The notes: generated by a model from the sequence alone, not told the origin. Shown: positions 28,861 through 64,000, counted from the stretch's first letter. The stretch is DNA of 64,000 nucleotides from Candidatus Leptovillus gracilis (GCA_016716065.1 JADJXA010000025.1:292863-356862); one strand, 5' to 3'. A program made the numbers and translations.

Positions 28861-28898
28861 GTCGTTTCACCCGTTACCCTGATTGAGGAATTAGAAGC

Positions 28899-33444: not shown

Positions 33445-33566
33445 GTCGGACTCCTGGCAAGCCGTTTCTCAGCGTTTCACCATACGGTACTATTATCATC
33501 CCTACGCACAGTGTGATACTATATTCGGGGTTTGTTCGCTACTGCGAACAAACGGGGAATAACATC

Positions 33567-34433: not shown

Positions 34434-34679
34434 ATGTCTACAGCCAAGAATCTCGAGAATTTGGGCGCCAAACTCAAAGCAATTCGCAAACACTTGGGCT
34501 ATAGCCAGGAAGATATGGCAACCGCTGTGGGTAAAACGGGTAAGTCCCGCCGGTCACGGGTGCATGAGTGGGAGAAAGGGCTGCGGGAGCCAGAACTTTC
34601 ATGTTTATCTGCCTATGCCCGGCTGGCGGGGATCTCCGCCGACGATCTGCTTGATGACAGTGTGGAACTTCGTTTGTGA
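34434..34679 (+). CDS. XRE-family HTH transcriptional regulator
   Basis: LGAKLKAIRKHLGYSQEDMATAVGKTGKSRRSRVHEWEKGLREPELSCLSAYARLAGISADDLL is the Cro/C1 HTH pattern. Confidence 0.8.
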   Translation: MSTAKNLENLGAKLKAIRKHLGYSQEDMATAVGKTGKSRRSRVHEWEKGLREPELSCLSAYARLAGISADDLLDDSVELRL

Positions 34680-34725
34680 CAGCCATCCCCGACGCCCAGA
34701 ACTAAAAAATAACAAACGTGAACCT

Positions 34726-42708: not shown

Positions 42709-42715
42709 AAAGCCT

Positions 42716-43597: not shown

Positions 43598-43601
43598 GGC
43601 A

Positions 43602-47500: not shown

Positions 47501-50500
47501 TGAACCACTCCGATTTCAACCACCTCTGTAATGAAGTTCTCTCGCTGATTGAGTTGGAAGAGACCAAACTGCTTGGTTGGGGCTTTGTCAACATTCGCGT
47601 GGATTTACGCCGCGACTTGTTGGATATGTTGAGCAAGTTGCCGGCAACGGCCGTTGCCCTATGGAACAAAGCGCAACAAACCAACTATACCGAGCAAGAC
47701 ATTATCGAGAACCTAATCGAACGGCGTCTGTTATTTGAAGTGCCAGACGGCTACCGTAGCCGCTTTGCCGAAACGGTGCGCCTCCTATTTTTGCTCAGAC
47801 AACGCTTTTCTAACGATGATTGGCAAGTGGCGCCGCACTTGGTCAGCGATTTCAAGCTAAAACTGCAACCGCGCCGCTATCCCCGACGCAATATCACCCT
47901 TGAACAGCTTAGGGAGGCGCTAAAACCTCTTCGCCCCTCCCAATTATTCGAGGATAGCATTGCGACCTTGTTGCAAGGAACATCCACACAGTCTTTACAA
48001 CTATCACAATTTCAGCTTGACGCAATCATTCAGCAAATCCGCAACTTGCAAGCAAATAATGATCAAGCATTGGTAATTGGGGCAGGCACAGGAGCCGGTA
48101 AAACCAAAGCATTTTATCTGCCCGCTTTGGCTTATATCGCTGAAAACATTCAATCAGACTATGCTACAACACAAGTGCTGGCTCTCTATCCCCGAACGGA
48201 ACTGCTCAAAGACCAGTTGGCAGAAGCTTTTTCCGAAGCGCGTAAGCTCGATAGTTTGTTGAGCAAAGCCGGTAAGCGACAAATTAGCCTTGGCGCTTAT
48301 TATGGCGACACACCCTCAAGAGCCGCTGATTTCTCCAGCCCACACAAGCCGAATGGCTGGAAGCAGGCAGATGATTTACGAGGCTGGATTTGCCCTTATT
48401 TCACCTGCCCTAACGAGTTATGCAATCATGCAGAGATGATTTGGCTTCAACAAGACATAGATCGTGAAGCAGTGGCTAACAGGTCGAATACATTCGGTGA
48501 ACACACGCGCTTGCAATGTCGTAAAGAATGCGGCTTTGAAACAGATGCCGGTCAGCTTATGCTAACCCGCGAGCAGATGATAAAACACCCACCTGACATC
48601 TTGTTTACCACCACGGAGATGCTCAATCGTCGCTTGAGTCGTGTCGCGGAACATAGCCTGTTTGGAGTCAACGCCAACAATCCGCCGCGCCTCGTTTTAT
48701 TAGATGAAATTCATACCTATGAGGGGATTAGCGGCGCTCAAGTTGCCTACCTGCTACGTCGCTGGCGGCAGGCAAGAGGTACTCACGGGCCTCAGCGCAG
48801 TCTTTGTTTGGTCGGCTTATCGGCAACTTTGACGCAGGCGGAAACATTTTTTGCCAAATTGGTTGGACTGCCAGCAAGGAGTGTGCAATATATTGAGCCG
48901 CATGAAAACGACCTCATTACGGAGGGAATGGAGTACAACATTGTTTTGCGAGGTGATCCGGTCTCTGGCACAAGTTTGCTGTCAACATCGGTGCAAACGG
49001 CAATGCTCTTAGGTCGCGCATTGGACAATGGAGATAACCCTGTTTCGCAAGGGGCGTTTGGCTCTAAAACATTTGCTTTCACGGATAAGCTGGATGTCAT
49101 CAACCGCTGGTATTACATTCAGTATGACGCAGAATACAACAAGAGATTGAGCCGTTGGCGCAAATTGCCCGAACCGCCTGACAATCAAAGAAGAGAGAGA
49201 ATGGATTTAGGTCAGATATGGCCCATGTCGGAGCGAATCGGGCATGATCTAGAGGTTGCGCTTCGTCTGGGCAGGACAACTTCCCAAGATCGGGGTTTCA
49301 ACACGGATGCGGAGCTAGTGATTGCGACAAGTACCTTGGAGGTGGGTTTTAATGATCCAAACGTCGGCGCGGTAATCCAACACAAAGCGCCACGTAGTAT
49401 GGCTTCTTTTTTACAGCGGAAGGGGCGCGCTGGTCGTCAACGCGGGATGCGTCCGTGGCTGGCGTTGGTGGTTTCCGCTTACGGCCGTGATCGCTGGGCA
49501 TTTCAACACGCAGAAGAGGTCTTTGATCCCCGTTTAGCAACCATCCATCTGCCATTGGAAAATTACTACGTGCAAAAAATACAGGCGGCATTTGCTCTGT
49601 TAGACTGGTTGGCGCTTGTGTTGAAAAAACAAGGGTTTGACGCCGACGTGTGGAAGTCACTAAGCAGCGCCCCCTACAGCAGCTCCAGTTGGTTCAGCGG
49701 TCAGCGAAAGGCAATGGCAGCTATCCTGCGCGATTTGCTAAACGGCAAACGGTTGGAGGAATTCACCGCCTATTTAACGCAGGCTTTGGTACTGCAACAT
49801 GATGAAACGGCCGTTACCTCCATCCTCTGGGGCGAACCACGATCTCTCCTTTATCACGTCATCCCCACCATCTTGCGCCAGCTAGAGACAGATTGGCAAG
49901 CCATCAACAGGGGCAACCCTCAAAAGTGGGCCGACAACATTGCCGCCATGCCCTTACCCGCTTTTGTGCCATCAGCTCTTTTTAACGATCTGAATGTTCC
50001 AGAAGTACAAATCTTCGTTCCCACAGAGCGGTGGCAGAGTGATGAAACACGGGAAGAAATGTTGGGATTAGCTCAATCGCTTATAGAATTCGCGCCTGGT
50101 CGAGCGAATAAGCGCTTTGCTCTCACCCATCACGCCGATCTTGCTCACTGGTTGCAGATACCTGATCCTGCTCCCGATGCGCCTCATAATCTCAACATTC
50201 ATGCCCTCAAAGCAGAATTTGATCCAGTTCCATCATCAATCACGGTCTCCGATACGTCATACCTCGTCTATCGCCCGCGAGCGTATCATCTGAATGCTGT
50301 ACCGGACGATGTGCGGACGACCAGCTATAGCCAGTTGCAATGGCTGTCTCATTTTCAACCGCGATCAATCTCCACCAATGCCAACCAGTCAGCTTTGGCC
50401 GCCCAACGTCAGGCTCTTGCCGTTTTCTCGTCTAACTCCCAGTGGCAGCGCTTTTTTTACAAAGTTGAGTCATTCACACAATCCAGTGGCGAGTGGGTTG

Positions 50501-52095
50501 AAGTTGCCCGTTTAGCGGTAGGGGTTCAGGTAGATACGCGCTATAAAAACGGCTCTTCATCTCGTTACACGCTCCAGTTTAGCAATGGTCAGGGAATGCT
50601 TGCAGCAATTGGATTTAGCGTGGCCGCTGACGCGCTTAAATTCAGCTTTTACCCACTAGATGTTTCCGCGTTATTCGCGCATCCACGTTGGCCCACCCTC
50701 TACCAAAATCTATCGCCTCACTATTTTCTACACCTGTTACAACAGGATCAGCGGGTAAGTAACCTGAGTAGTTTTGAGATTGAGTGGCTATGGCAGATTG
50801 AACTATCTATGCTAACGACCGTTGCCATCTCCCGCTCCTGTTCTTTACCTGAAGCCGCGCAAGAAGTGCAAGAGAATCGCCACGCTCTAGCCAATCATGC
50901 CCTTAATATCATCTTTCAAAGTCAGGCTATAGACGAAATAGGCGATTCCATCATGACCGGCAAATTGCATAAGCAATTGCTGGATCATCAAGTAAATCCT
51001 GACGTTCAGGCCGCTTTATCCGCTGCGGCGACGGCGCTGTGGCACCCCAACCAACAGGATTTAGCAGAATGGCTGTCTGGCTGTTATGCCTCTTCATTGG
51101 GCGCAGTTTTGTTTACGGCCGTTATCCAACTATTGCCCGATATTGAACCAAACGACCTCCATATGGACATCGCCGGCGGTTGCATCTGGATTTCCGAAGC
51201 TATCACCGGCGGCGTTGGACTAATCTCTAAAATCGTTACCGCAATTACGCAACATCCACGCCAGTTTGAGTTACAGCTATTAGACACCCTCGCCCATTGT
51301 CGCCGGAGCCAGCTTGCCCAGCAATTACGCGCAGTTGTCCAGCTTATACAAGAACAAAACCCCGAATTAGAAGCTGTTTTCGCGCAAGTTCGCCAAGAAA
51401 GCGACCTGTCCAGTCTGACAAACGCACAAAAGAGATTAACGCATATCTTGGAAGCGCATGGCATTCCGCCCACACGCCAACTTTTTGTCGCCCTGAATAA
51501 TAAAATCCTACGGGCGAATTCCGATGCAGATACCGACAAACTGATCGCTGATCTGGCGCATCATTGGGAGGCTGAAGAGAATCGCTTGGGAATTGCCATA
51601 GACTTGCGTGTGATCGCTGTGGCCGGTTATCAAATTCCCACAATACAGGAGCAAGTCAAGAAAGTGCTCAACCGGATTGGCGGCGGTCAGCCCGTTCAAG
51701 ATGAGACCCAAGTTTTCAATTTGCTCCAATCATTGCTCTGGCTAAATTGTGTAGATAGTTGCCCCGATTGCATCCAGACATGGAACCCGTATCAACCCCA
51801 AATACGGCCGTCGCGTGATCTGCTCACGCTTTTACTGGCGCCATATGGGCAGACCATCCTATACGGTGACGCCTACTGGGAGAGCCAACTACAAAAAGCA
51901 TTGGTAGCAGAGTATCAGGCCGAACTCCTTTGTGAACAGGCAGAGTTAGCCGAATGTAAAATTGCTCTGTTGCACGCCTTGACGCAGCCCATTGATATAG
52001 GCTTTCAAAGTTTTTACCCTGTTATCGAAAGTATTAGACAAGATAAACAGCAATGGCGATTCCATCTAATCATCCGCGAATTGGTGGGAGAATAA
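47500..52095 (+). CDS. dpdJ: Large DEAD/DEAH-box helicase with a C-terminal DUF1998/MZB-like Cys motif (DpdJ-like; DrmA/B-like)
   Basis: IGAGTGAGKTKAF (motif I), LVLLDEIHTYEG (motif II), GLSATL, ATSTLEVGFNDPNVGAVIQH and QRKGRAGR (motif VI). C-terminal NCVDSCPDC. Confidence 0.7.
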   Translation: MNHSDFNHLCNEVLSLIELEETKLLGWGFVNIRVDLRRDLLDMLSKLPATAVALWNKAQQTNYTEQDIIENLIERRLLFEVPDGYRSRFAETVRLLFLLRQRFSNDDWQVAPHLVSDFKLKLQPRRYPRRNITLEQLREALKPLRPSQLFEDSIATLLQGTSTQSLQLSQFQLDAIIQQIRNLQANNDQALVIGAGTGAGKTKAFYLPALAYIAENIQSDYATTQVLALYPRTELLKDQLAEAFSEARKLDSLLSKAGKRQISLGAYYGDTPSRAADFSSPHKPNGWKQADDLRGWICPYFTCPNELCNHAEMIWLQQDIDREAVANRSNTFGEHTRLQCRKECGFETDAGQLMLTREQMIKHPPDILFTTTEMLNRRLSRVAEHSLFGVNANNPPRLVLLDEIHTYEGISGAQVAYLLRRWRQARGTHGPQRSLCLVGLSATLTQAETFFAKLVGLPARSVQYIEPHENDLITEGMEYNIVLRGDPVSGTSLLSTSVQTAMLLGRALDNGDNPVSQGAFGSKTFAFTDKLDVINRWYYIQYDAEYNKRLSRWRKLPEPPDNQRRERMDLGQIWPMSERIGHDLEVALRLGRTTSQDRGFNTDAELVIATSTLEVGFNDPNVGAVIQHKAPRSMASFLQRKGRAGRQRGMRPWLALVVSAYGRDRWAFQHAEEVFDPRLATIHLPLENYYVQKIQAAFALLDWLALVLKKQGFDADVWKSLSSAPYSSSSWFSGQRKAMAAILRDLLNGKRLEEFTAYLTQALVLQHDETAVTSILWGEPRSLLYHVIPTILRQLETDWQAINRGNPQKWADNIAAMPLPAFVPSALFNDLNVPEVQIFVPTERWQSDETREEMLGLAQSLIEFAPGRANKRFALTHHADLAHWLQIPDPAPDAPHNLNIHALKAEFDPVPSSITVSDTSYLVYRPRAYHLNAVPDDVRTTSYSQLQWLSHFQPRSISTNANQSALAAQRQALAVFSSNSQWQRFFYKVESFTQSSGEWVEVARLAVGVQVDTRYKNGSSSRYTLQFSNGQGMLAAIGFSVAADALKFSFYPLDVSALFAHPRWPTLYQNLSPHYFLHLLQQDQRVSNLSSFEIEWLWQIELSMLTTVAISRSCSLPEAAQEVQENRHALANHALNIIFQSQAIDEIGDSIMTGKLHKQLLDHQVNPDVQAALSAAATALWHPNQQDLAEWLSGCYASSLGAVLFTAVIQLLPDIEPNDLHMDIAGGCIWISEAITGGVGLISKIVTAITQHPRQFELQLLDTLAHCRRSQLAQQLRAVVQLIQEQNPELEAVFAQVRQESDLSSLTNAQKRLTHILEAHGIPPTRQLFVALNNKILRANSDADTDKLIADLAHHWEAEENRLGIAIDLRVIAVAGYQIPTIQEQVKKVLNRIGGGQPVQDETQVFNLLQSLLWLNCVDSCPDCIQTWNPYQPQIRPSRDLLTLLLAPYGQTILYGDAYWESQLQKALVAEYQAELLCEQAELAECKIALLHALTQPIDIGFQSFYPVIESIRQDKQQWRFHLIIRELVGE

Positions 52096-52099: not shown

Positions 52100-52609
52100 A
52101 TGTCTAATCGCATGATCAAATCAGCCACCCGCAAAAATTCTTTACAGCTAACCGATTGCCTCAGCTCACTGTTTATGCTGGAATTGGCGCTGCCCAGCCA
52201 ACAGTTTTATTTGTTCTCGCCATGGATAAGTGATGTCGCTCTAGTAGATAACCGCTTTGGCCAAGTCAGGTCAATTGTCCCTAACCTTGAAGAGCGTCAA
52301 TTACCCCTCTCTACGCTGCTAAACGCAATGGCTTCGCGGGGAACGGCCGTTTACATTGTTTGCCGCCCCTCTTACGAGCGAACAGAAACGTTTTTGCGAA
52401 AATTATTGGTAGATATTCAGGTCAGGCAGGTGGAAACTCTGCACGAAAAAGGATTAATCACCGATCATTTTTATCTGCGCGGCTCCATGAACTTCACCTA
52501 TTCAGGTATTCACATCAACGATGAACATATCGAGCTAACCACAGACACAGAACAGGTTGCTCGCGCCTTGTTGGAAGCGCGACACCGATGGGAAACTCTT
52601 GGAAAATGA
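52100..52609 (+). CDS. dpdK: Phospholipase-D-family (HKD) nuclease (DpdK-like)
   Basis: HKD motif LHEKGLITDHFYLRGSMNF (HxKxxxxD...GSxN) in a 169-aa protein. Confidence 0.75.
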   Translation: MSNRMIKSATRKNSLQLTDCLSSLFMLELALPSQQFYLFSPWISDVALVDNRFGQVRSIVPNLEERQLPLSTLLNAMASRGTAVYIVCRPSYERTETFLRKLLVDIQVRQVETLHEKGLITDHFYLRGSMNFTYSGIHINDEHIELTTDTEQVARALLEARHRWETLGK

Positions 52610-54351
52610 CCACTGTAACCTTTGCCAACCCTGATCAATACGCCTTTGCTCAGGAGTTTGTCCGTCCTCTTGTTAATCAGGGCATTCGCGCCATGGGCGA
52701 TCCTCATCAGCTAACGCTGACCACAGATCACGCCGCCGTTAACCTGCTGTTTCAGCGTCTGGCGAAAACAAATGCCGCCATATTGCCTTACTTGGGAAAT
52801 CGTTCGGATCAATGGTTGCTAGTTGGGCAAGACCGTCGCGCCCTGGATGAAATGTTGGCGCGTGTGACCGCCTTTGTCATTCCTTCTTACGCTGAATTTG
52901 GCGATGGGGCACGCTTTGCCGAACTTTCTCTCTTTGACCCGCAAAAGAACATACTGAACCAATTGGGAGCGCAACTGTACAATCTTGGTTACTACAAGTG
53001 GGAGTCGTCCCCGAGGTACCGCGAAACAATTCTTGCCCGGCTATCACTGTGGCTCAAGTTGGAAGAAATCGAACCGTCCCTTGAACTGCCTCCTCAGTAT
53101 GGGTACCGGGACCTGTATCAACTATTTACGCAAGCATTGAGTGTTAAAAACTGGCCGACGGCCGCAAATGTTTTGTCTGAGATGCGCCGGCTCAATCTGA
53201 CAACCGCCGAAAACCTGCAATTCTTGCATGTTCAATGGTTAGCTGAACAACAAAGATGGCAAGACATTTGGGATGATCCAGATTTTGCAATGCTCGCCAG
53301 GTTAAGAATGCCCCGCGATGTACGGTCGGCCATGTTGACCACTTTCCATCATGTGAACCTGCTGGCTTTAGAACGAGCGGGGCAATGGGAAACGGCCGTT
53401 GCCATCTTCCAAGAGATGCAAGGGCGTTTAGGTACATTACTGGTAGGACGATTTGGCGTTGCGCAAGCTCCCGTTCTGCGCGTTTTTGGTTATCAGGCAC
53501 TACTCAACAACGATGCCACCACATTAGAAAGTCTCCTAGCTGAGGCTTCAGATTTAGAGACGATTCACTGCCTCAACCAGTTAAAAAGCCGGCTGACCCC
53601 ATCAGACGCCAAAACGAAAGTTCTCACTCAAGACCCCTTACAACAAGCCATCCTGGCTTTAAAAGCAAATGATTACGACACCGTTATTCAAGCAATAAAA
53701 GCTATTGACGACATAACCGCCCGGGTTTTGTTGGCTATTGAAATCGCCTATCACAGCCGTGATGATCTGCTAATACAAGAAGCATGGACTATTTACCAGA
53801 GCCTTTCCCCAGAGCAGAAACAAGCGCTCATGGTCAACGGCCGTTATGTGGGTATTTACCTCGATTTCTTGCGGGAAAGTAGTACCGATCAACCAAAATC
53901 CATATGGGCCACAGAAGTAAAGAAAGCACGGGACGCCGCCTGGGATGGCGTGTGTGAAGTTGAATATTATCTGAGGCGTTTGGTTGAAGACCGGTATGCC
54001 AAGAAATTTGGAGATGTCTGGGAGTCTCGCGTTAACCCTGAATTACGCGAGAGATGGGCAGGCACACAAACTAAAGACGAAAAAACCTTCGCCCGCTATG
54101 GAATGCGAAAATCTTCACTGTTGGACTACACTTACATGGGTGATTTGGTCGGGTTAATCAACAATCAGTGGCCACTCTTTGAAGATATTTTGGGCGCAGG
54201 CAAGGCAGCCAAACAAGAGTTTACACGGGTGACAGAAGCGGTAATTCGTGTCCGAAACCCTCTGGCGCACAACAGGGATGTGCCTCTCAATGAATTACGC
54301 CGGGCTGATGTTTACTGTGCTGATTTGCTAATGCTTCTCAGGGGGCCATGA
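52606..54351 (+). CDS. Helical-repeat protein with a C-terminal Swt1-like HEPN domain
   Basis: The C-terminus carries YYLRRLVEDRY...MGDLVGLINNQW...EAVIRVRNPLAHNRDVPLNEL. The RNPLAH segment is the Rx4H HEPN motif. ATGA overlap with the dpdK stop. The ORF is open from 52588. Confidence 0.65.
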   Translation: MTTVTFANPDQYAFAQEFVRPLVNQGIRAMGDPHQLTLTTDHAAVNLLFQRLAKTNAAILPYLGNRSDQWLLVGQDRRALDEMLARVTAFVIPSYAEFGDGARFAELSLFDPQKNILNQLGAQLYNLGYYKWESSPRYRETILARLSLWLKLEEIEPSLELPPQYGYRDLYQLFTQALSVKNWPTAANVLSEMRRLNLTTAENLQFLHVQWLAEQQRWQDIWDDPDFAMLARLRMPRDVRSAMLTTFHHVNLLALERAGQWETAVAIFQEMQGRLGTLLVGRFGVAQAPVLRVFGYQALLNNDATTLESLLAEASDLETIHCLNQLKSRLTPSDAKTKVLTQDPLQQAILALKANDYDTVIQAIKAIDDITARVLLAIEIAYHSRDDLLIQEAWTIYQSLSPEQKQALMVNGRYVGIYLDFLRESSTDQPKSIWATEVKKARDAAWDGVCEVEYYLRRLVEDRYAKKFGDVWESRVNPELRERWAGTQTKDEKTFARYGMRKSSLLDYTYMGDLVGLINNQWPLFEDILGAGKAAKQEFTRVTEAVIRVRNPLAHNRDVPLNELRRADVYCADLLMLLRGP

Positions 54352-54386
54352 TTTCCTATTTGGGCAAAATCTTAAATAATAGTCGT

Positions 54387-54581
54387 CTACTCAAACGGCC
54401 GTACCATCTCAATCTCATACACTTCCGCTAAAGAAACGTCTATCTCATCCAGTGCCTTCTGAACATCGCGTGTTATCAACGCCACTGTATCGGGCGCCAA
54501 TGTCACGTCAACTTCCTGCCCCTCCATTAACTCAAGCACGACGTGCAAAACCTTGTCTGGATTTGTATCAGCCTGTTTCAT
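54387..54581 (-). CDS. Small acidic protein (64 aa)
   Basis: Acidic sequence. ATGA overlap with the stop of the 852-aa ATPase gene indicates translational coupling. Confidence 0.45.
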   Translation of the reverse strand: MKQADTNPDKVLHVVLELMEGQEVDVTLAPDTVALITRDVQKALDEIDVSLAEVYEIEMVRPFE

Positions 54582-56935
54582 GTTTCTCGCTCCTTGTAAG
54601 ATCCTTCTTCTGTTTCAACCAGATGCAGACGTAAGGCGGTGTACACATCAGGCACTAACATCCGTATCTCTTCCTGTACTTCAGGAGACACTTCCGTCAA
54701 AGCCACGCTCTCACCACGTCGCCAGGCATCAACCACCCGACTTGTGCGATCTGATAAGGTTGTAGACCCCGCCTGTTCACATTGCTCGATATAACGCTGG
54801 ACCTGGCTCAATACGTTGGCTAACGGCCGTCCCTCCAGCAAATAATCCTTGTCTATTTCTGACACATCCATCTGGGCCAATCTGGAAAACCACGTCTCAT
54901 AAGGTACGTCTTTCAACAATTGCCCAATGAGAACACTATCGTAAAACCCCTGACGCAACTCGAAAAAATCATCGAACAGAAACTGAAATGCCTGCCAGCT
55001 CCTGTCACTGATTTGTTCATGCCGCCACCGATAACGCTGATGCGTGTCATTGACCCAACACCAGAAATCAGCAGGAAAACCTGGTAAACGGTAGGCTCCT
55101 TCGCCTTTGACAACCAGGGCAAATGTTTGCAATACTAACGCCAGCAGCTCCACCTTCATACCCAACTGAGTCTCAAGATCAAGCCTTACACGTTGGCGAT
55201 AGTTGTCTGCTGTCATTTGCAAAGAGACAAGCTCTTTGGCCGTCGCCAATTGTTCTTGTAACTTTTTCGTTTCACTGCCGGTCGCTGTTCCGTACCGGCA
55301 TAAGTCGAAAGCTATCATGCCAATATCGCGCGTTAGCGCGATGCCATCCTGTGCTTCATCTACTCCTTCCAGATAAATGGGCAGGCGCACATCCAGATAC
55401 GTTTTGCGCCAGCGTAGCGCGCCACGCGGCTTGGCTACATGCTCCCGATATATCCAGTCAATGGGCTGCACAGTGCGCAGCCAACGTGCCGCACCCTGAC
55501 GCAAGGACCGCAGCATCTGCCGGTTGACCGACTTGCCCAGAAGCCAGTCTCTAACAACCATCTGGCTTTCGTCCTCAATGATCAGGCTGCTCGTTGCTTC
55601 GCGGGGCTGGTAAAAACGAATGAGAGGCTCAACGGGAATTGCCCTTTGTTCTGCGGTAATGGCGAAGGCCAGCAGCAGAGTTCCCGGCAGAGCAATCAGA
55701 TTATCACTGTCTGGCTCCAACAAAGGTCCGTAAAACTCGCACAAACGCGCCAGACGACTGTCTTCCACTCTGGCGATATATTCCGGCCGAGCGAAATCTA
55801 CCAGCACATCCAACGGGTCTTCACCCGTGGTAGTGCGCCGCAATATCTCGTGCAGATACCGAACAAAATACCGTACTTTCCCTTTACCCGCAGGCAAAGC
55901 GCGGTAAATGCGCACCAGCGCTTCCCGCGTGAATGGGAAATAGGGCAGGCCCGGTACAGTGTTGTCATTCATCTCTGTCAGATAGCGAGATGCAAACTCA
56001 TCACAGTTTGCTTCGGTTAAGACGTAAGACTCCTTGCCCGTTTCATCTGACAACCACATTTTCCCGACACGGTCATCTATCGTGTCCAGATGGCTGATGC
56101 GCTGCAACAATCCGCGGCCGCGCAAGCTATCTTCAAACGCGGCTGGCGTTAGCCCTAAAACAACGTCCCAGTTACCTGCTTCCAACGTCAGGAGGTAATC
56201 CAGTAGATCAGTGGCAAAGATATTAAGGGATTGCACCAAATCGTCCACCAGCAAAAGAGGCCGCTGTCCCTGTTCTGCCTGACAATGATACGAAATACGC
56301 TGCATCGTTTCAGCCAGCGATAGACCTTCCAGCAGATGGTCACGAAAAGCGGTGGTCAATTGATGACGGAACTGTTCGTAAGCTACCGGAACGGGCAGGG
56401 ATGTTTCTCGAAGAATAGCCGACCAGGTTTCCTGACCAATCAGCTCCACGCCCATAGACTCGTCTATATCTCCTGGTTCAAACGCCAGGATTCTGTCTAC
56501 GTGTGGTTGCAGCGCATTCAGCAAGCGGTAGAAAAGAGCGTTGATCAGGTCATCCGAATCGAGAAGGTTCTCCAGAGCGAACAAGAGAATCATTTTAGTG
56601 ACCGTGCGCGATTTCTGCCGAGCGGCACTCCAGCGCTGTGTCGTCGTTTCGTTGAGAAACTGATTGGGCAACAAAGTCAGGAAACGATTGACGATGCTAA
56701 GAACATCTAGCTCATGGCGCGAAATACGCACCATTACCTGGCCCCGCTGCGGTTCTTCCTGGAGGATGCGCGTCTCTAGCCATTTAATCAGCTCCGATTT
56801 TCCCGATCCCGGGGCGCCGTACAACACCCAGATGCGGTTGCCCAAACCATTCTGTTGCCCCAGAACACGCCGCAGTAACGCATCCTCTGTCAACATTTCG
56901 AGATGGCCGTTAGGCTGATAGCTGCGCATGGTCAT
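54578..56935 (-). CDS. Large P-loop NTPase (unknown family; Walker A context resembles the DpdH-position protein)
   Basis: Walker A IWVLYGAPGSGKSELIKWLE and Walker B RPLLLVDDLV, followed by a long helical C-terminus. The ORF is open up to 57136, but that would overlap the upstream gene by 118 nt. MTMRSYQ at 56935 is chosen; the start is uncertain. Confidence 0.6.
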   Translation of the reverse strand: MTMRSYQPNGHLEMLTEDALLRRVLGQQNGLGNRIWVLYGAPGSGKSELIKWLETRILQEEPQRGQVMVRISRHELDVLSIVNRFLTLLPNQFLNETTTQRWSAARQKSRTVTKMILLFALENLLDSDDLINALFYRLLNALQPHVDRILAFEPGDIDESMGVELIGQETWSAILRETSLPVPVAYEQFRHQLTTAFRDHLLEGLSLAETMQRISYHCQAEQGQRPLLLVDDLVQSLNIFATDLLDYLLTLEAGNWDVVLGLTPAAFEDSLRGRGLLQRISHLDTIDDRVGKMWLSDETGKESYVLTEANCDEFASRYLTEMNDNTVPGLPYFPFTREALVRIYRALPAGKGKVRYFVRYLHEILRRTTTGEDPLDVLVDFARPEYIARVEDSRLARLCEFYGPLLEPDSDNLIALPGTLLLAFAITAEQRAIPVEPLIRFYQPREATSSLIIEDESQMVVRDWLLGKSVNRQMLRSLRQGAARWLRTVQPIDWIYREHVAKPRGALRWRKTYLDVRLPIYLEGVDEAQDGIALTRDIGMIAFDLCRYGTATGSETKKLQEQLATAKELVSLQMTADNYRQRVRLDLETQLGMKVELLALVLQTFALVVKGEGAYRLPGFPADFWCWVNDTHQRYRWRHEQISDRSWQAFQFLFDDFFELRQGFYDSVLIGQLLKDVPYETWFSRLAQMDVSEIDKDYLLEGRPLANVLSQVQRYIEQCEQAGSTTLSDRTSRVVDAWRRGESVALTEVSPEVQEEIRMLVPDVYTALRLHLVETEEGSYKERET

Positions 56936-57018
56936 GGGATAGTGGGTGCGCAAAAAGAGATCGGCGCCCAATAAATACCGTTGGTCGGCAGTGGGCGCAA
57001 AGATAGATAGGTTACTAC

Positions 57019-57789
57019 TCAAGCCCCACCCCCGTTGCAAAGAAGATAACGTAACCGCTGTTCCGCGAAATAGGGCTTGTTGGGTGCATCCTGATAAGGG
57101 CGCATTAAGATGTTTCGCTGCTGATGTAAGTACCACAACGGCTGACCAACTGCGTGCGCCAGGTTGCCGGTTTGTGTCTGGTGGGGTAAATAGCCCGCCA
57201 GGTGCTCTTCCAAAAAGTCCTGGATAAACCCCTCGCGTCTATCCCACACGACGAGAATTTCTTGTAACAGGGTGGGGGAATAAACGCATTGAAACCCATC
57301 GCCGATGCGTCGCCCTATACCCAGGTAAGCCATTACTCGTTTCCAGGAACGGATTTTTTCCTGACTGAGACCGCCTAACTCAGCGACAGGTCGCAACTTG
57401 TTCGCCTCGGTGTGAACGTCACTCACGTACAGATGATTCGGTTTGATAAAAAGCTCTTGTAGCAGCAGCAAGTACAACGAATCTAATTCGTGGTTAGGCG
57501 TGATTTTTCGACTGGCAAGCGCCTGCAAACGAGCAATCACGGTTAACCGGAAGGAGGTTGTTGGCCTTTCCGGTTCCCCCAGACAAAACCCATCGCGGTC
57601 TTCGATCAGAAAAGCGGCGACGAGAAAGGAGAGAGCGTCGTCAATGCTTTGGGGTGAAACAGCTCGCTTGTCTTTATAGTCTGGAAGACAGGCCTGATAA
57701 ATCGCCTGGCGCGAGACCGGCTTCGTATTCTGAGCCACAAAGGTGTAGACGACTTCCAGTTCTGGACCGGATACAGGACGAAATAGCAT
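57019..57789 (-). CDS. Hypothetical protein with an N-terminal wHTH-like segment
   Basis: LEVVYTFVAQNTKPVSRQAIYQACL...SIDDALSFLVAAFLIE looks like a winged helix. It is the first gene of the minus-strand three-gene operon, divergent from the short TGT-like gene. Confidence 0.5.
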   Translation of the reverse strand: MLFRPVSGPELEVVYTFVAQNTKPVSRQAIYQACLPDYKDKRAVSPQSIDDALSFLVAAFLIEDRDGFCLGEPERPTTSFRLTVIARLQALASRKITPNHELDSLYLLLLQELFIKPNHLYVSDVHTEANKLRPVAELGGLSQEKIRSWKRVMAYLGIGRRIGDGFQCVYSPTLLQEILVVWDRREGFIQDFLEEHLAGYLPHQTQTGNLAHAVGQPLWYLHQQRNILMRPYQDAPNKPYFAEQRLRYLLCNGGGA

Positions 57790-57812
57790 GATCTCTCCAG
57801 GTTAGCGAACCA

Positions 57813-57841
57813 TTGACGCAGATCGCTACGTGTGCTAGTTT
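57813..57841 (+). promoter_or_regulatory. Sigma70-like promoter for the TGT-like/queC unit
   Basis: ttgacg (57813-57818)-17 nt ending in tgc-tagttt (57836-57841), 40 nt upstream of the ATG at 57884. Confidence 0.35.
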
Positions 57842-57883
57842 ACACAGTGGTTAACGTGTTCGCAATAAAGAACAAGATGTGAC

Positions 57884-58783
57884 ATGGACTTCTACGTAAG
57901 TTGGTATCCCGGAGATCCCCTTTATCCCGTCTACGATCCAGATTGCGCCTTACTGGTGAGTATTACGTCGGTGGCTCAAGACTGGACAATTGATCGTCTG
58001 GCAACGCTTCCGCGCCGACTGCTGATAGATAGCGGTGGTTACCGCTTTGCGATTGCCCCTGACGATGCTTTATCACCCAAGCAAGTGCTACAAAGGCAAC
58101 TGGCGCTGCTGAACGGGGCGACAATTCCGACGATCATCTGCGCTCGTGATTATCCCCTACTCGACAAATCTATCAGCCCCAATGAGCGGGATAAAAGTAT
58201 TACCCAAACAATAGCCTTTGCTTATGAGCTAAAGACTCTTATTAACCAGAATGGACTGGAACACCACGTTACACCGATGGCCGTTATCCAGGGCAATGAT
58301 GAGGATTCATTGGCTTACTGTGCCAGAGAGTTGCAGGCTATCGGCTTTCCCTTGTACGGGATAGGTTCACTGGCGGAGTTACGAAAGCACAACCTGATTA
58401 TGGAACGAGTGAAGGTTGTGGCCAACATCATTGGCCCGGAGAAGCTGCACATCTTTGGTATCGGCGCAGTGCAAACAGCGCAGACTTTCCAGAAAATGGG
58501 TATCCACTCCCTTGATTCTTCACGACCGGCTAAAGCCGCCGCTTACAATGAGGTTCTTTACAGTAATCCCTATCGTCGTTTTGGGATTTTGGAACCTCCG
58601 TCAATTCCGCTAAAAGGTCGCATTGCGCCGCATAAACGATTAAGCGCTCCTTTGCACTGCCACTGCCCCATATGCCAGGAAGATGCAACACGGATATTGG
58701 GTGTCGGCAAGCGTAGCCATATCCGCGACCGGGCCTTGCACAACTATTACCATCTCAAAAAGGCTTTTCTTAGCCAAAACTAA
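57884..58783 (+). CDS. Short TGT-superfamily transglycosylase (second, phage-like DpdA-type paralog)
   Basis: LLIDSGGYRF (catalytic DSGG motif), AVIQGN, YGIGSLA, HIFGIGAV, LDSSRPAKAA and the zinc motif CHCPICQ...HNYYH. 299 aa. Confidence 0.7.
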   Translation: MDFYVSWYPGDPLYPVYDPDCALLVSITSVAQDWTIDRLATLPRRLLIDSGGYRFAIAPDDALSPKQVLQRQLALLNGATIPTIICARDYPLLDKSISPNERDKSITQTIAFAYELKTLINQNGLEHHVTPMAVIQGNDEDSLAYCARELQAIGFPLYGIGSLAELRKHNLIMERVKVVANIIGPEKLHIFGIGAVQTAQTFQKMGIHSLDSSRPAKAAAYNEVLYSNPYRRFGILEPPSIPLKGRIAPHKRLSAPLHCHCPICQEDATRILGVGKRSHIRDRALHNYYHLKKAFLSQN

Positions 58784-59003: not shown

Positions 59004-59672
59004 ATGATAGATTCAGTCGTCATTGTCAGTGGGGGAATGGACAGCGTGACCCTGCTGCACTATTTGATCAAAATAGAAAAGCGTAACCCGGCGGTAATCA
59101 CCTTTGGTTACGGACAAAAACATGACAAGGAAATTGAGTACGCCAGGGCACAGGCAACCGCGCTTGGTTGCGAGAACCATCTGGTGCTAGATTTAGCGCT
59201 GCTGCGTCCGCTCTTTGCCAACTCGGCATTGGTATCACTGGAAACGGCCGTGCCCAACATCCAGGATGTTCTTGGCGATCCACAGCCACCAACCTATGTC
59301 CCTAACCGCAACATGATTTTCCTGGCTCTTGCTGCTGCTTTCGCTGAAACGCAAGACGTCAGCGATATTTTTTATGGCGCACAACGCCACGATGTATACG
59401 GATATTGGGATACGACTCCTCAATTCCTGGAGCAATTGAACCAGGTTTATAAACTCAATCGCCGAACGCCGGTGACAATCCTTGCTCCTTTCGTTCAGTA
59501 TTCCAAAGCAGATATTTTGCGTCAGGGTCTCGAAATGGGTGTGGATTACGGCCTCACCTGGTCTTGTTACGAAGGGCGCGAGATGGCTTGCGGCCAATGT
59601 CCCACTTGCGCCGAAAGACTCAAAGCCTTTGAGGAAATGGGCCTGATGGACCCCTTGCCTTATGCAGTATGA
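59004..59672 (+). CDS. queC: 7-cyano-7-deazaguanine (preQ0) synthase
   Basis: VVIVSGGMDSVTLL (PP-loop SGGxDS), FGYGQKHDKEIEYA, YVPNRNMIFL and the C-terminal zinc motif CGQCPTCAERLKAF. Confidence 0.9.
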   Translation: MIDSVVIVSGGMDSVTLLHYLIKIEKRNPAVITFGYGQKHDKEIEYARAQATALGCENHLVLDLALLRPLFANSALVSLETAVPNIQDVLGDPQPPTYVPNRNMIFLALAAAFAETQDVSDIFYGAQRHDVYGYWDTTPQFLEQLNQVYKLNRRTPVTILAPFVQYSKADILRQGLEMGVDYGLTWSCYEGREMACGQCPTCAERLKAFEEMGLMDPLPYAV

Positions 59673-59796: not shown

Positions 59797-60309
59797 ATGA
59801 TTTACGTTGTCATGTATCTGGTGGCGATTGTTCTGGCGAATTTGACGGTGGCCGCTTTTGGCCCCAACATGGTCATCATCAATGCTTTTCTGTTCATCGG
59901 GTTGGATCTGACAGCGCGAGACCGGCTACATGATGCCTGGCGGGGCAATCGTTTATTCGTGAAGATGGCTGCTTTAATCGCCGTCGGATCCCTACTGTCC
60001 TGGGTACTCAATCGTAACGCAGGACAGATTGCGCTGGCTTCATTCGTTGCTTTTGCCGCCGCCGCTACGGTAGACGCTGTCGTCTATCATGTGTTGGGCA
60101 AATACCCTCGTTGGTTGCGTATCAATGGCAGTAATATTCCCAGCGCTCTGGTTGATTCGTTGGTCTTTCCTACTTTGGCGTTTGGCGCTTTTCTGCCGTC
60201 TATTGTTTTGGGCCAGTTCATTGCCAAGGTGCTTGGAGGATTTGTATGGTCTCTGGTTTTTCGGTGGACAGAGCAGCGGACAATGGCTAAAGCCAAACAG
60301 CCAAGTTAA
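59797..60309 (+). CDS. yhhQ: VUT/YhhQ-family queuosine-precursor transporter
   Basis: A multi-TM 170-aa protein. ANLTVAAFGP, INAFLFIGLDLTARDRLHD and SALVDSLVFPTLAF match the DUF165/YhhQ pattern. Confidence 0.7.
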   Translation: MIYVVMYLVAIVLANLTVAAFGPNMVIINAFLFIGLDLTARDRLHDAWRGNRLFVKMAALIAVGSLLSWVLNRNAGQIALASFVAFAAAATVDAVVYHVLGKYPRWLRINGSNIPSALVDSLVFPTLAFGAFLPSIVLGQFIAKVLGGFVWSLVFRWTEQRTMAKAKQPS

Positions 60310-61116: not shown

Positions 61117-64000
61117 TCACCCGCCGGGAACACTGGTCAGTGGCCTTGATGAGATGGCCACCACCACCCGAAAACCGAGATAGGCGGCTCGGAGGTCTGG
61201 GTTAAGGTTGTAGCGGAAGGCCGCGCGCGCGAGGTCCGGGCCGCGGTGCCACGAACCGCCGCGCAACACGCGGGAGTCCCGGCTTTGGTCTACGCCATCC
61301 GCTTCCGGTTCGCCATATTTGTTCCGACACCATTCCCATACATTGCCGCTCAGGTCATATAGTTCCAACGCCTCATTTTTACCGGATGGATACAAGCCAA
61401 CGGCCGTTGGCTGCCCAATCCTCCCCTCGTCTATGTTCGCCCAGTCTGTGTTAAAGCGGCTGCCCCAGGGGTAAAAACGGCCGTCAGGATACCTTGCCGC
61501 CGCTTCCCACTCAAACTCATGCGGCAGACGAATGTCCATCTCTAGCTTATCGCTCAGCCAGCGGCAAAAGGCCACCGCCTGATACCAGCTTACCGTCTCG
61601 CGGGGATGATTGGCGTAAGGAAATTCGGGTTCAGAAAACTGTCGTTCGTCATCGGGCATACCATCCCACCACTTCGGTTCATCCCGGTCGGGCGCATCCA
61701 CAAAGCATTTAAACTGGGCGTTGGTGATGGGATAACGCGCCAAACAAATATCATGCGGGATGGTCACTTGCTGCTGTGTAAGGCTCACATAAGCCTCTTC
61801 GTCCCCTCCGATTGTGTAGCGCCCGGCTTCCAGCCAATTTCCCCAGGCAATGTCCGGTAGCTTTACCTCGCCGCGCTCCACCACGCCTACACCGGGGCGG
61901 GTATCTTCAAGCCAGCGCCCCAAGGCGTGGCCGGCTTGGGCCCGATGCGCTGGTTTCAGGCTGCTTTCGGCCACCAACGCCGCCTCCAGCCAAGCACGCC
62001 CGCCCGCTTCCACCAGCACAAAAGGATGTTCCACCTCCTTGCCACGCACAAAACGCATGAAGTTGGTTTCATGAATGGTCTGCGCCGCCAGAACAGCGCA
62101 AAACAACTGCCATTCGGACACATCCGACCGCGGCTGCCCGGCCGTCAGCCGCTCCACCAGCGATTTCACCCGGTAAGCGTCGGCGCGTGCCTGCCCCGCC
62201 GCCAGCAAGAAAATTTCCCGCCACCAGGCGGTATCACGCTGTAACCGCCTGTACAGCCCCTCCACCGGGTCATCTGGCAGCGACCAGACGTGGGCCGCCG
62301 CCAGATACTCCTGAAACGTGCGGTGAGGGAAGACGTAGGTGAAATGCTCTCTGGCTTGCAGCAGCCCAGATCGCTGTTGGATGTAGTCCGTCACTTCTTT
62401 GGCCCGGTCGTAGCTGCCCACCAAGGGCAGCAATCCCTCCCACAATTCGTCACGGCCAATGTCGGCGGCCTGTTCATCCCGGTTGCGCTGCCCTTCCTGC
62501 CGCTCGTGGGCGGCGAAGGCGATCGCTTCCAACACGCTGCGCACCTCTTCCCGCCGCAAATCCAGGCGGGCGATGATGCCGGGTTCCACCTGCCGCGAAC
62601 CATCCGGTCGCCGCACCAGTCGGTTTTCCCAATGGGAAAGGAGCAGATTGATGGCCCGGTCGTACAGGTCGGCGCGGTTTTCCGGCAGGTCTCCATATCG
62701 GCCATGTACTTGGGCCATCAGGGTGAGCAGCAGCGGGTATTGACCCAATTCGCGCAAATGGGGCTTCGCCAGCACCGCGTCGGCCAGCCGTTTCGCCTCT
62801 TGCGCCTGCTGCGGCAAGTCCCACTTCTGGCGCGGGCCGGTGACGCGATACCACGTTTCCGTAAACTGCCGGATTTGCCCCTCCTTGAACAAGGCCAGGT
62901 CAATCACCGGAAATTGTGCTTCTGGCAGCCGCCAGGCGTCGTCTTTTTTGTAGGCATACTCGCGGCAGGTCACGATGACCTTGCAGGTGTCCAGCGGCCC
63001 GGCGAAGTCGGCGATGGTTTGTTTGATCAGGCTGCGACGGCCGTCTACCACGCTCTCCGGCACTTCATCCAGGCCATCAAAGAAGATGACGCCACCATCC
63101 GCCAGCAGTTTTTCTTTGACAGAACTGTACGCCTCCCGGCAGCCCCAATCGGGGAAGAGCTTTTCTTCCAGGTAGCGCCAGACCAGCCCGGCTTTGGTGT
63201 CGGGCTGGTTGTCGCCTACAGTGTCGGCCAGCCAGGCGGCAAAGCGGCGCAGGACGATGCGCACCGGCAGCAGCGGCGTCTCCGGCCAATCCGGCAGAGC
63301 GGTGGGGCCACCGGCAAGGCGCTGCCGCGCCAGGGTGGTTGCCAGGTAGTTGACCAGGGTGCTTTTGCCGCCGCCGGGATAGCCGAGGATGACAACTCGT
63401 GGCAAAGCGCCGGTGACGGAAACGGCCGTGAGAGGCTGTGTCTCTTTTTCTTCTTTGGGGGAACGGCCGTGCGCTGTCTCGTCGGGGAATCTTCGCAGCG
63501 CCTCGGCCACCGTCTGGCCGGGCGCGCGCCGGATCACCTGCGTCCCCCACGCCGCGTACAGGGTGGTGAACACATCGGTCAGCCGCACCTCGCCGCCCTC
63601 GTCATCCAGGAAACGCTCATCCACTTCCGCCAGGTCCAGCCGGTTGCACTGGTCAATCAGGGTTTTCAGATAAGCCGTCTCCCAGGTCTGCTTTTCGGCG
63701 CGGCCGCCCCACTGAAACACGGTTTGCTGCTGGATGATCTGCGGCCCGCTGACCACATTTTCGGCCACGATCCGGCCGGCCTGGATGCCTACGTGTTGGC
63801 CGGGTGAGGCTTGCAGCGCTGCCACCATTTGCCGCATCAAGACCACCATCTGCTGCTGCAAAGCGGTTTGCGCCCAGCCTTGATGCACCTGGATGATGGG
63901 TTGCAGCGCGGTTTCAGCCGCGGCCGTTTCCAGAAAGGCGGCTTCAAAGGCGGCCACCGCTTCGGGGAAGCGCAGGCCGGGCAGCGTCTCCGGGTCGTAG
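61117..64000 (-). CDS. STAND NTPase: NACHT domain fused to a C-terminal FGE/SUMF1 domain. The N-terminus probably lies beyond the window.
   Basis: Walker A VVILGYPGGGKSTLVNYL and Walker B VIFFDGLDEV. The C-terminus carries YPITNAQFKCFVD, TVSWYQAVAFCRWL, RLPHEFEWEAAAR, GNVWEWCRNKY and LRGGSWH. The frame is open upstream of the GTG at 63957 to the window edge. Confidence 0.85.
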   Translation of the reverse strand, partial: YDPETLPGLRFPEAVAAFEAAFLETAAAETALQPIIQVHQGWAQTALQQQMVVLMRQMVAALQASPGQHVGIQAGRIVAENVVSGPQIIQQQTVFQWGGRAEKQTWETAYLKTLIDQCNRLDLAEVDERFLDDEGGEVRLTDVFTTLYAAWGTQVIRRAPGQTVAEALRRFPDETAHGRSPKEEKETQPLTAVSVTGALPRVVILGYPGGGKSTLVNYLATTLARQRLAGGPTALPDWPETPLLPVRIVLRRFAAWLADTVGDNQPDTKAGLVWRYLEEKLFPDWGCREAYSSVKEKLLADGGVIFFDGLDEVPESVVDGRRSLIKQTIADFAGPLDTCKVIVTCREYAYKKDDAWRLPEAQFPVIDLALFKEGQIRQFTETWYRVTGPRQKWDLPQQAQEAKRLADAVLAKPHLRELGQYPLLLTLMAQVHGRYGDLPENRADLYDRAINLLLSHWENRLVRRPDGSRQVEPGIIARLDLRREEVRSVLEAIAFAAHERQEGQRNRDEQAADIGRDELWEGLLPLVGSYDRAKEVTDYIQQRSGLLQAREHFTYVFPHRTFQEYLAAAHVWSLPDDPVEGLYRRLQRDTAWWREIFLLAAGQARADAYRVKSLVERLTAGQPRSDVSEWQLFCAVLAAQTIHETNFMRFVRGKEVEHPFVLVEAGGRAWLEAALVAESSLKPAHRAQAGHALGRWLEDTRPGVGVVERGEVKLPDIAWGNWLEAGRYTIGGDEEAYVSLTQQQVTIPHDICLARYPITNAQFKCFVDAPDRDEPKWWDGMPDDERQFSEPEFPYANHPRETVSWYQAVAFCRWLSDKLEMDIRLPHEFEWEAAARYPDGRFYPWGSRFNTDWANIDEGRIGQPTAVGLYPSGKNEALELYDLSGNVWEWCRNKYGEPEADGVDQSRDSRVLRGGSWHRGPDLARAAFRYNLNPDLRAAYLGFRVVVAISSRPLTSVPGG

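Follow-up and report, generated by a model that had tools for sequence, protein, structure and literature searches.

A diverged DpdG-DpdH pair linked to a short TGT-family gene in Dpd islands of Chloroflexota and Bacillota: a candidate partner for DNA base exchange

Introduction

What, if anything, takes the place of DpdB in a Dpd island that has none? The DNA transglycosylase DpdA depends on the ATPase activity of DpdB (PMC10164549), and DpdB is reported in 92% of dpdA genomes (PMC5699537). The question is raised by a 64,000-nucleotide stretch of DNA from Candidatus Leptovillus gracilis (GCA_016716065.1, JADJXA010000025.1:292863-356862; here called the window, the whole stretch that was analysed), where three minus-strand genes at 54387-57789 lie inside a Dpd island, between its DpdD/HEPN gene and a divergent operon for a short TGT-family protein (sTGT), QueC and YhhQ. 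A reading of this DNA made from the sequence alone (the sequence-only reading) had described the three as an operon for a winged helix-turn-helix protein of 256 residues, a P-loop ATPase and an acidic protein of 64 residues. It had seen in the ATPase a diverged paralogue of the island's own protein in the DpdH position, and had proposed either a replacement for the missing DpdB or an independent, uncharacterised defence module.

By profile comparison the two larger proteins are distant relatives of DpdG and DpdH, for which the names DpdG2 and DpdH2 are used here, and together with sTGT they form a conserved three-gene module of Dpd islands in Chloroflexota and Bacillota that are almost always without DpdB. 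The module bears on how Dpd DNA transglycosylases find and open their target sites, and on what DpdG and DpdH do. Its presence in cultivable Paenibacillus and Bacillus provides an experimental handle, both on whether a BrxC-like ATPase can take over an ATP-requiring base-exchange step and on whether DpdG/H-type proteins serve modification, restriction or both, as BrxC does in BREX.

A second DpdG-DpdH pair

Pfam recognizes the ATPase through generic AAA models only (AAA_22, E 5.8e-7). Its best specific match is the NCBIfam DpdH model NF041065 (49.3 bits, E 2.7e-13), which aligns at model positions 23-142 with residues 59-177 of the 852-residue open reading frame (ORF). The equivalog cut-off of this model is 450 bits, and the ATPase falls below it; the true DpdH of the same island scores 412.9 bits. 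Pairwise BLASTP between the two P-loop proteins detects similarity before and around Walker A (E 8e-7) and again in the Walker B region (E 4e-4). When an alignment of 22 ATPase homologues (A1) was compared by hhalign with a DpdH alignment drawn from the island of the window and related islands (A4), the families matched at 99.6% (E 5.7e-24) along 498 columns, a span that reaches well outside the P-loop, and a greedy alignment of the two reached 772 colinear columns. Judged by these pairwise and profile alignments the ATPase is a DpdH paralogue, and the kinship proposed by the sequence-only reading extends well past the P-loop itself.

An exhaustive HMMER search with the A1 alignment (1.84 billion representatives) returned 118 clusters at E<=1e-30, and close to that value (about 1e-30) a further group appears whose members have approximately 930-1130 residues. 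Bridging proteins are reached by the family profile at about 1e-32; the one that was tested, P0380 from this further group, gives 99.5% against the DpdH profile as well and in this way bridges the DpdH2 and DpdH families. None of the 157 ATPase homologues found bears a name beyond generic ATPase labels. Across 22 family members, G72, G74, K75, S76 and E77 of Walker A are invariant, as are D260, D261, L262, V263, Q264 and S265 of Walker B, which aligns with LFIEDI of DpdH. Counted from the Walker A lysine to the Walker B aspartate, the spacing is about 185 residues in the ATPase and about 230 in DpdH, close to the values of about 190 and 235 given earlier. The structure model of the ATPase has a pLDDT of 76, and its Foldseek matches in the PDB (HslU, RdrA, TnsC, ORC/Cdc6 and NLRC4) are weak, with E values of 3e-3 to 0.4 and TM scores of at most 0.21 for a model of pTM 0.50. 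A search of PDB sequences with the family profile gave no match, Pfam gave none to DUF499 (BrxC) at E<=0.1, and PADLOC gave none to BrxC. In most DpdH2 members, and in DpdH as well, the ATPase core is followed by a CxxC...C cluster; the copy in the window has a deletion at this place (residues ~350-362).

The 256-residue protein has no Pfam match, and on the NCBIfam DpdG model NF041064 it scores 18.5 bits (E 0.001, residues 11-67), below the cut-off of 80 bits. The same model matches 3 of the 23 members of the DpdG2 family, the best at 2.2e-6, and Pfam PF28110 (DpdG) gives a faint match on the homologue P0141. Pairwise BLASTP against DpdG finds nothing (E 1.1), and the link is seen by profiles only: hhalign of the 23 DpdG2 sequences (A2) with the DpdG family alignment (A3) gives 95.9% and E 6e-9 over 223 columns, nearly the full length. 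On this profile evidence the protein is a remote DpdG paralogue. Its AlphaFold model (pLDDT 85.9, pTM 0.85) contains three winged helices, at residues ~8-70 (WH1), ~125-170 (WH2) and ~172-251 (WH3), and the modelled fold is of a DNA-binding type; Foldseek matches are weak and fall on tandem winged-helix proteins (Dcc1, SelB WH2-4, AlkX/YcaQ and the FokI recognition domain). The sequence-only reading had not noticed the kinship with DpdG. With both proteins being such paralogues, the unit is a duplicated and strongly diverged DpdG-DpdH pair.

Conservation of the module

The loci used for comparison (L numbers) comprise 41 from a set with one genome per species and 56 from metagenome contigs, some of them redundant; their ORFs were searched with the proteins of the window. 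Carriers occur in the Chloroflexota (Anaerolineae, Ktedonobacteria and Chloroflexia) and in the Bacillota (Paenibacillus, Bacillus, Brevibacillus, Neobacillus, Desulfosporosinus, Desulfocucumis and Clostridiales). DpdG2 lies immediately upstream of DpdH2 in all loci (81/81), and wherever there is enough flank to tell, an sTGT homologue adjoins the pair (58/58), which was never seen away from it. A search that started from sTGT homologues yielded four further contexts, with the pair present in all. Among the 49 loci whose flank exceeds 12 kb, a Dpd restriction-type gene is found in 44 and a long DpdA in 38. Since the same gene order recurs across about 100 independent loci, the arrangement is no chance event.

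Gene orientation differs between lineages. sTGT is divergent from the pair in Chloroflexota and Desulfotomaculia; Bacillales have a co-directional operon (sTGT>DpdG2>DpdH2) of overlapping or abutting genes, and the long DpdA there is usually fused to DUF6884. The order in Paenibacillus is yhhQ-dpdC/A-(gene of 262-270 residues)-sTGT-G2-H2-queC-queD-queE. The gene that follows DpdH2 varies and may be queC (L020), dpdE (L027), dpdJ (L022 and pART37) or the long dpdA (L011); in the window it is a convergent dpdD, and in L044 a 986-residue protein followed by a YprA-like helicase.

A fully annotated example is found on the plasmid pART37 of Paenibacillus sp. 37 (NZ_CP043762.1, 358-393 kb; L046/L047). 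Here queE-queD-queC on the opposite strand are followed by VUT, dpdA (690 residues), a hypothetical protein, sTGT, G2, H2, dpdJ, dpdK and a DpdD-like gene, and then by DpdE, dpdF, G, H, I and a second dpdJ-K-D set. The two dpdJ-dpdK-dpdD-like sets, one behind sTGT-G2-H2 and the other behind dpdE-F-G-H-I, look as if two sub-systems had been joined. sTGT is labelled 'queuine tRNA-ribosyltransferase', G2 'hypothetical protein' and H2 'P-loop NTPase fold protein', the names under which genes of the module pass in public annotations. The only plasmid match of the module sits in a Dpd island and phage records hold no match; a phage origin was considered and is ruled out, sTGT and the ATPase finding nothing in PHROGs or by tblastn against 50,697 phage records.

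Some Anaerolineae (L044:12678-20014, L010:15677-22236 and L064) carry beside the module, instead of DpdD-K, a protein of 986-1009 residues and a distant YprA-like helicase of ~1458 residues, with a long DpdA nearby in L044. Four metagenome contigs (L051-L054) contain the module, a YprA-like helicase and a further, distant pair of DpdG2-like and DpdH2-like proteins (E 2e-29 and 3e-17). Directly after DpdH2 in L010 (12493-15702) lies a SIR2 + nSTAND1 + HEAT + FGE-sulfatase protein.

Gene starts and the 64-residue gene

All three minus-strand ORFs described by the sequence-only reading are present (Table 1, where coordinates are positions in the window; the three were called on its minus strand). 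The longest ORF with the P-loop begins at GTG 57136, encodes 852 residues and overlaps the 256-residue gene by 118 nucleotides. The TTG at 57022-57020 shares TTGA with the stop TGA of that upstream gene and gives an ATPase of 814 residues, which keeps the N-terminal motif F-APTADQRY, invariant in the 22 family members. Because this start retains the invariant motif and produces the stop/start overlap typical of the family (4 or 1 nucleotides in 25 of 28 related loci), TTG 57022 is most likely the true start of the ATPase. The GenBank record P0001, from a Chloroflexi metagenome-assembled genome (785 residues, 100% identical), begins at an internal ATG 29 codons further on (56935-57022), and its annotation loses 29 residues that include the family-invariant FAPTADQRY; by comparison with the family this start is too late. 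At the other end, the ATPase stop and the start of the 64-residue gene share ATGA, the coupling reported earlier, and a gap of 35 bp separates the latter gene from the stop of the convergent DpdD/HEPN gene (54351). The spacer between the 256-residue gene and the divergent sTGT start (57884) measures 94 bp, the length first given for it.

Orthologues of the 64-residue gene are confined to L042/L043, L044/L045/L049 and L048, four to six near-identical contexts with ATPases 80-93% identical to that of the window; the gene was not found in L001 (ATPase 75% identical) or in any other locus examined. It is a real gene, since dN/dS between diverged copies is 0.19-0.28, indicative of purifying selection, and its acidic product has an isoelectric point of 4.2. 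The protein has no family match in Pfam, NCBIfam, PADLOC or PHROGs and no similarity to DpdI by BLASTP (E 4.6). That it is the split-off C-terminus of longer ATPases was considered and rejected, a hidden Markov model of three copies having matched no locus ORF. The 64-residue protein is a lineage-specific accessory outside the conserved core. The 'trio' of the sequence-only reading thus consists of three real genes, of which the DpdG2/DpdH2 pair is the conserved unit and the third is clade-restricted.

The short TGT protein and the divergent intergenic region

The best specific match of sTGT is the NCBIfam DpdA model NF041059 (7.6e-18; 64.5 bits, below the cut-off), and BLASTP against the DpdA of the island gives 1e-13. 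Invariant in 16 family members are D49 (in DSGG), D89, D211 (in S-DSS) and C259/C261/C264/H286, which through PDB 7UI4 correspond to Asp95, Asp130, Asp256 and the zinc site of S. Montevideo DpdA; the general acid, base-recognition Asp, nucleophile and zinc site of DpdA have been assigned (PMC10164549). sTGT is mostly without the DpdA-specific DNA-binding insertion Ins8, and the distance from the nucleophile Asp to the zinc motif is ~48 residues, versus ~128 in DpdA. The long DpdA of the window likewise keeps its catalytic residues, and because catalytic Asp and zinc-site residues are retained in both, sTGT and the long DpdA are each predicted to be active.

The closest relatives (L042:759-2507 and L044:6283-8034) have genes for a QueF-like protein (PF14489) and a class-II glutamine amidotransferase (GATase_6) between sTGT/queC and yhhQ; the sTGT operon of the window is without them. 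Their presence suggests that another deazaguanine derivative (G+ or preQ1) occurs in the islands that carry them, and hints that the base handled by sTGT may differ from the DpdA/DpdC product.

Alignment of six related intergenic regions shows an inverted repeat, TGTTC-N8-GAACA, at 57857-57874, ending ~10 bp upstream of the sTGT start, and further conserved blocks, TGTGTAAACTA and GTCAA; the conservation reaches relatives with 55% ATPase identity. The region is probably a shared operator or promoter, to judge from these blocks. A scan of 54200-58000 for sigma-70 promoters and terminators gave no excess over shuffled expectation, and nothing in the intergenic region.

The surrounding island and the question of DpdB

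Over 32.4-60.3 kb the G+C content is 0.46-0.52, versus 0.55-0.69 in the flanks. Within this segment DpdA, a DpdC-type protein (DUF6884 being DpdC; bioRxiv 10.1101/2025.02.24.639861) and the restriction set DpdD-K, its DpdI weak, occur together and make up a Dpd island (Table 1). The genes for the 256-residue protein, the ATPase and the 64-residue protein follow the DpdD/HEPN gene in the opposite direction, and sTGT, queC and yhhQ come after them. DpdH2 of the window thus stands beside sTGT and outside the dpdE-F-G-H-I-J-K operon, which has its own DpdG and DpdH (42662-46814); canonical DpdG-H-I for restriction is already present in this island.

No ORF of the island, the three genes included, matches DpdB, DGQHR or DndB models in Pfam, NCBIfam or PADLOC, and the DGQHR motif appears in none of the six frames of the window; for this stretch, the earlier remark that no DpdB is visible holds. 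The 337-residue ORF overlaps the start of the DUF6884 gene by 4 nucleotides, lies where dpdB might be expected and has no DGQHR motif. In Bacillales islands a conserved gene of 262-270 residues always separates the DpdC-DpdA fusion from sTGT (L020:7453-8238 and 14 other loci; WP_149847116.1 on pART37). Both were considered as a hidden DpdB and rejected, neither having a family, PDB or PHROG match.

Among 131 unassigned neighbours of module loci, 4 have Pfam DndB matches; two of the four were not placed, and PADLOC matches to DndB, DndA and DndC point to Dnd systems. A DGQHR protein of L004 is assigned to the adjacent Dnd system because genes with PADLOC DndA and DndC matches adjoin it. L012 carries, inside its island, a DpdB-like DGQHR protein (L012:2419-3570; NF041060, 1.7e-27, sub-threshold), which has no homologue among the 56 metagenome loci and is unrelated to the 337-residue ORF and to the Bacillales gene, themselves unrelated to one another. 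dpdB is not found in the PGAP-annotated island of pART37. Nearly all Dpd islands that carry the module are without DpdB.

A type I restriction-modification system (hsdM, hsdS, hsdR) at 24663-32283 lies directly upstream of the Dpd island, with an EAD7-domain protein (27472-28629) inserted between hsdS and hsdR. The other flank carries a 946-residue NACHT/AAA_16 NTPase fused to an FGE-sulfatase-like domain (61117-63957, minus strand).

Table 1. Features of the module and of the surrounding Dpd island, in window coordinates
Feature	Position	Strand	Basis or remark
DpdG-like protein (DpdG2), 256 aa, three predicted tandem winged-helix domains	57019-57789	-	ORF call, profile comparison, AlphaFold model
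DpdH-like AAA+/P-loop ATPase (DpdH2), 814 aa from TTG 57022 (most likely start)	54578-57022	-	ORF call, Pfam, NCBIfam, hhalign
64-aa acidic protein, clade-restricted accessory gene	54387-54581	-	ORF call, ATGA overlap with ATPase
N-terminal motif APTADQR, family-invariant	56978-56998	-	supports TTG 57022 start
Walker A GAPGSGKSE, DpdH2 residues 69-77	56792-56818	-	family alignment
Walker B LLLVDDLVQS, DpdH2 residues 256-265	56228-56257	-	family alignment
Divergent intergenic region, 94 bp, conserved blocks	57790-57883	.	alignment of six related intergenic regions
sTGT, short TGT-family protein, 299 aa, DpdA-like	57884-58783	+	Pfam TGT 7.6e-13
queC (preQ0 synthase), downstream of sTGT	59004-59672	+	Pfam QueC 3e-59
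yhhQ/VUT-family preQ0 transporter	59797-60309	+	Pfam Vut_1 3.2e-14
337-aa ORF	32431-33444	+	no match in Pfam, NCBIfam, PADLOC, PHROGs or PDB sequences
DUF6884 protein, DpdC-type domain	33441-34331		Pfam 3.8e-11
DpdA	34564-35979		NF041059, 1.3e-130
DpdE	36105-40130		PADLOC
DpdF	40087-42708		PADLOC
DpdG	42662-43597		NCBIfam 5.8e-22
DpdH, 1070 aa	43602-46814		NCBIfam 3.9e-123
Coiled-coil protein, DpdI-like	46811-47500		NCBIfam 0.007 (weak)
DpdJ	47500-52095		PADLOC
DpdK	52100-52609		PADLOC
DpdD N-terminal region fused to Swt1-type HEPN domain	52588-54351		PADLOC, Pfam

A proposed role and its alternatives

We put at roughly one half the probability that DpdG2 and DpdH2 target sTGT to DNA for base exchange, in a role analogous to that of DpdB. 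DpdG2, with its array of three winged helices, would bind DNA, and DpdH2, with intact Walker motifs and translational coupling to DpdG2, would spend ATP in engaging or remodelling that DNA and would present target guanines to sTGT. sTGT would then put preQ0 or a derivative, provided through QueC and YhhQ, in the place of guanine. The pair would in this way belong to the modification side, being for sTGT what DpdB is for canonical DpdA and what BrxC is for the BREX methyltransferase. Such a placement is supported by sTGT being the only constant neighbour of the pair, and by the position of the pair between the TGT genes and queC/D/E in Bacillales. Also in favour are the canonical DpdG-H-I that the island already has for restriction and, for a replacement of DpdB, its near-absence from module-bearing islands as compared with the 92% of dpdA genomes noted above. 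Related cases exist in the literature: BREX methylation is abolished by deleting brxB, brxC or brxZ (PMC6326788), DpdH with DpdI has been described as BrxC-like (bioRxiv 10.1101/2025.09.15.676423), and a STAND NTPase has been proposed as the stand-in for DpdB in TGT-containing BRC systems (PMC12839542). We infer a physical complex, ATP dependence of the base exchange and the identity of the inserted base.

Several observations weigh against this assignment. To our knowledge phage DpdA enzymes need no helper ATPase, and sTGT may therefore need none. The phage enzymes are of similar size, and the phage study PMC6884629 mentions no DpdB; the DpdD-K set of S. Montevideo, with DpdG and DpdH among its members, has been given a part in restriction rather than in modification (PMC10164549). 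L012 carries both a DpdB-like gene and the module, which are therefore not mutually exclusive. The near-absence of DpdB was observed in module-bearing islands only, and the unvarying partner of the pair is sTGT, not canonical DpdA, which tells against a replacement of DpdB. Structural matches of DpdH2 are weak (best Foldseek E 3e-3), with no Pfam match to DUF499. Finally, in L017, L104, L022 and pART37 the pair directly precedes dpdJ, dpdK and dpdD or a dpdD-like gene, like the canonical G-H-(I)-J-K order.

This last gene order argues for the main rival reading, which we consider possible at odds well short of even: the pair would be a second BrxC-like DNA-surveillance complex that reads the sTGT mark or its absence and licenses effectors of the DpdJ/DpdK/DpdD type, while sTGT modifies alone; like BrxC in BREX, the pair may also take part in both activities. 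The restriction-assigned DpdD-K set (PMC10164549) contains the homologues DpdG and DpdH, one of the two dpdJ-K-D sets of pART37 lies directly behind the module, L017 and L104 show no further homologue of DpdG/H in their available flanks (too short to establish a compact system of sTGT-G2-H2-J-K-D alone), and BrxC mutants differ in their effect on methylation and restriction (PMC13326643). A surveillance complex of this kind fits less well with a downstream neighbour that is unconserved, whereas adjacency to sTGT is complete (58/58), with the place of the Bacillales pair among the deazaguanine genes, with the stop/start overlaps that tie the pair to sTGT in one-direction operons, or with the canonical DpdG-H-I already present in most islands. 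Because BrxC has a dual role, the modification and sensor readings need not exclude each other.

The remaining explanations fare less well. The inverted repeat and conserved blocks of the 94-bp region, the winged-helix fold and weak Foldseek matches, the repressors ScaR, Zur and PadR among them, would all suit a transcription factor, and DpdG2 might control the divergent sTGT-queC-yhhQ operon at the inverted repeat, with the ATPase as modulator; we consider this improbable, given full-length homology to DpdG, for which no regulator role is described in the Dpd literature searched, genes co-directional with sTGT and without a divergent promoter in Bacillales, a separate XRE-family HTH gene filling the intergenic position in Ktedonobacteria-type loci, and an ATPase of 814-1200 residues with invariant Walker motifs, an unusual partner for a repressor. 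Still less probable is a self-contained anti-phage system that landed in the island and is unrelated to deazaguanine chemistry. The window is a defence island (type I restriction-modification, Dpd and a STAND NTPase) and PADLOC gives one weak match outside Dpd (mad8, 9.6e-5), but the proposal of an independent module goes unsupported because the pair is bound to sTGT and almost never found outside a Dpd-type island (restriction-type genes in the 44/49 well-flanked loci noted above). Both proteins are moreover Dpd paralogues by profile, no nuclease or effector domain appeared in Pfam, NCBIfam or PADLOC scans, phages gave no match and the sole plasmid match lies in a Dpd island. Decay of a duplicated dpdG-dpdH segment into a non-functional pair is hardly credible. 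The curated models do score both proteins very low (DpdG2 18.5 bits, cut-off 80; DpdH2 49 bits, cut-off 450), but conservation refutes decay: the ORFs are intact in two phyla, many residues are invariant, those of Walker A and B among them, the ATPase family has 118 clusters at E<=1e-30, translational coupling is conserved and the DpdG2 fold is confidently modelled.

A bolder form of the base-exchange reading, which we regard as unlikely on balance, would make sTGT-DpdG2-DpdH2 a self-sufficient, ATP-driven transglycosylation machine in which a BrxC-type ATPase and a triple winged helix replace DpdB. Two different 7-deazaguanine marks would then be written, dADG by the DpdC-DpdA fusion and preQ0 by sTGT (or G+/preQ1 in the relatives with QueF-like and GATase genes), each read by its own DpdG/H-type complex.

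Comparison with known systems

The literature searched on canonical Dpd, phage DpdAs, BRIGADE and BRC, which did not include Thiaville et al. 2016 and Yuan et al. 2018, describes for Chloroflexota or Bacillota no additional short TGT accompanied by a DpdG/DpdH-type pair. Surveys that demand dpdA together with dpdB (bioRxiv 10.1101/2025.02.24.639861) will miss the module-bearing branch of Dpd islands.

Like sTGT, the phage DpdA enzymes (PMC6884629, PMC10516641) are TGT-family proteins of ~300 residues, often encoded beside genes for preQ0, G+ or preQ1 biosynthesis, and close relatives of sTGT adjoin QueF-like and GATase genes; sTGT itself matches neither phage records (tblastn) nor PHROGs, and no DpdG/H-like pair has been described for phage DpdAs. 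With DpdB (PMC10164549) the module would share an ATP-hydrolysing partner encoded beside a DNA transglycosylase. The two are unrelated in fold and sequence, however: DpdB has a ParB/DGQHR domain and partners the long DpdA, whereas the module has an AAA+ P-loop protein without a DGQHR motif and a separate winged-helix protein, partnering sTGT, and L012 has both.

The BRIGADE systems of haloarchaea (bioRxiv 10.1101/2025.09.15.676423) are Dpd-like islands with DpdG, DpdHI/BrxC-like proteins, 7-deazaguanine genes and PLD nucleases, often with two YprA-like helicases, as pART37 has two dpdJ genes. They differ in being reported from halophilic archaea only and defined by ARMADA-like YprA helicases, with no second short TGT and dedicated G/H pair described. 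The BRC (BREX-Related Capture) systems (PMC12839542; TGT/GNAT, DUF6079, DUF4007, STAND NTPase) are by their description similar in that a TGT is linked with a tripartite DNA-binding protein and a BrxC-like ATPase, and neither DpdB nor DpdC is present. BRC is built on HerA/FtsK and PglZ, neither of which is in the module, and its TGT occurs in a subset of loci, whereas sTGT is invariant in the module, which is embedded in full Dpd islands. Compared with BREX, the module is without PglZ and BrxB, has no DUF499 or PADLOC BrxC match, would serve a transglycosylase and not a methyltransferase, and resembles BrxC structurally at the general AAA+ level only; the likeness to BrxC (PglY) and BrxA lies in a large ATPase needed for modification of host DNA by a separate enzyme (PMC6326788) and in a multi-domain DNA-binding companion.

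The closest counterpart is the canonical DpdG-DpdH(-DpdI) set of S. enterica Montevideo (NF041064/NF041065). DpdG2 and DpdH2 fall far under the curated cut-offs for these families, the ATPase has 814 residues versus 1070, there is no DpdI-like partner, the DpdH2 of the window is without the CxxC...C cluster common to DpdH and most DpdH2 members, and the pair is tied to a short TGT and not to DpdF and DpdI/J, with a bona fide DpdG-H-I in the same island. Common to the two sets are homology over essentially the whole length, a winged-helix gene immediately upstream of the ATPase gene, the same P-loop context and the same type of island.

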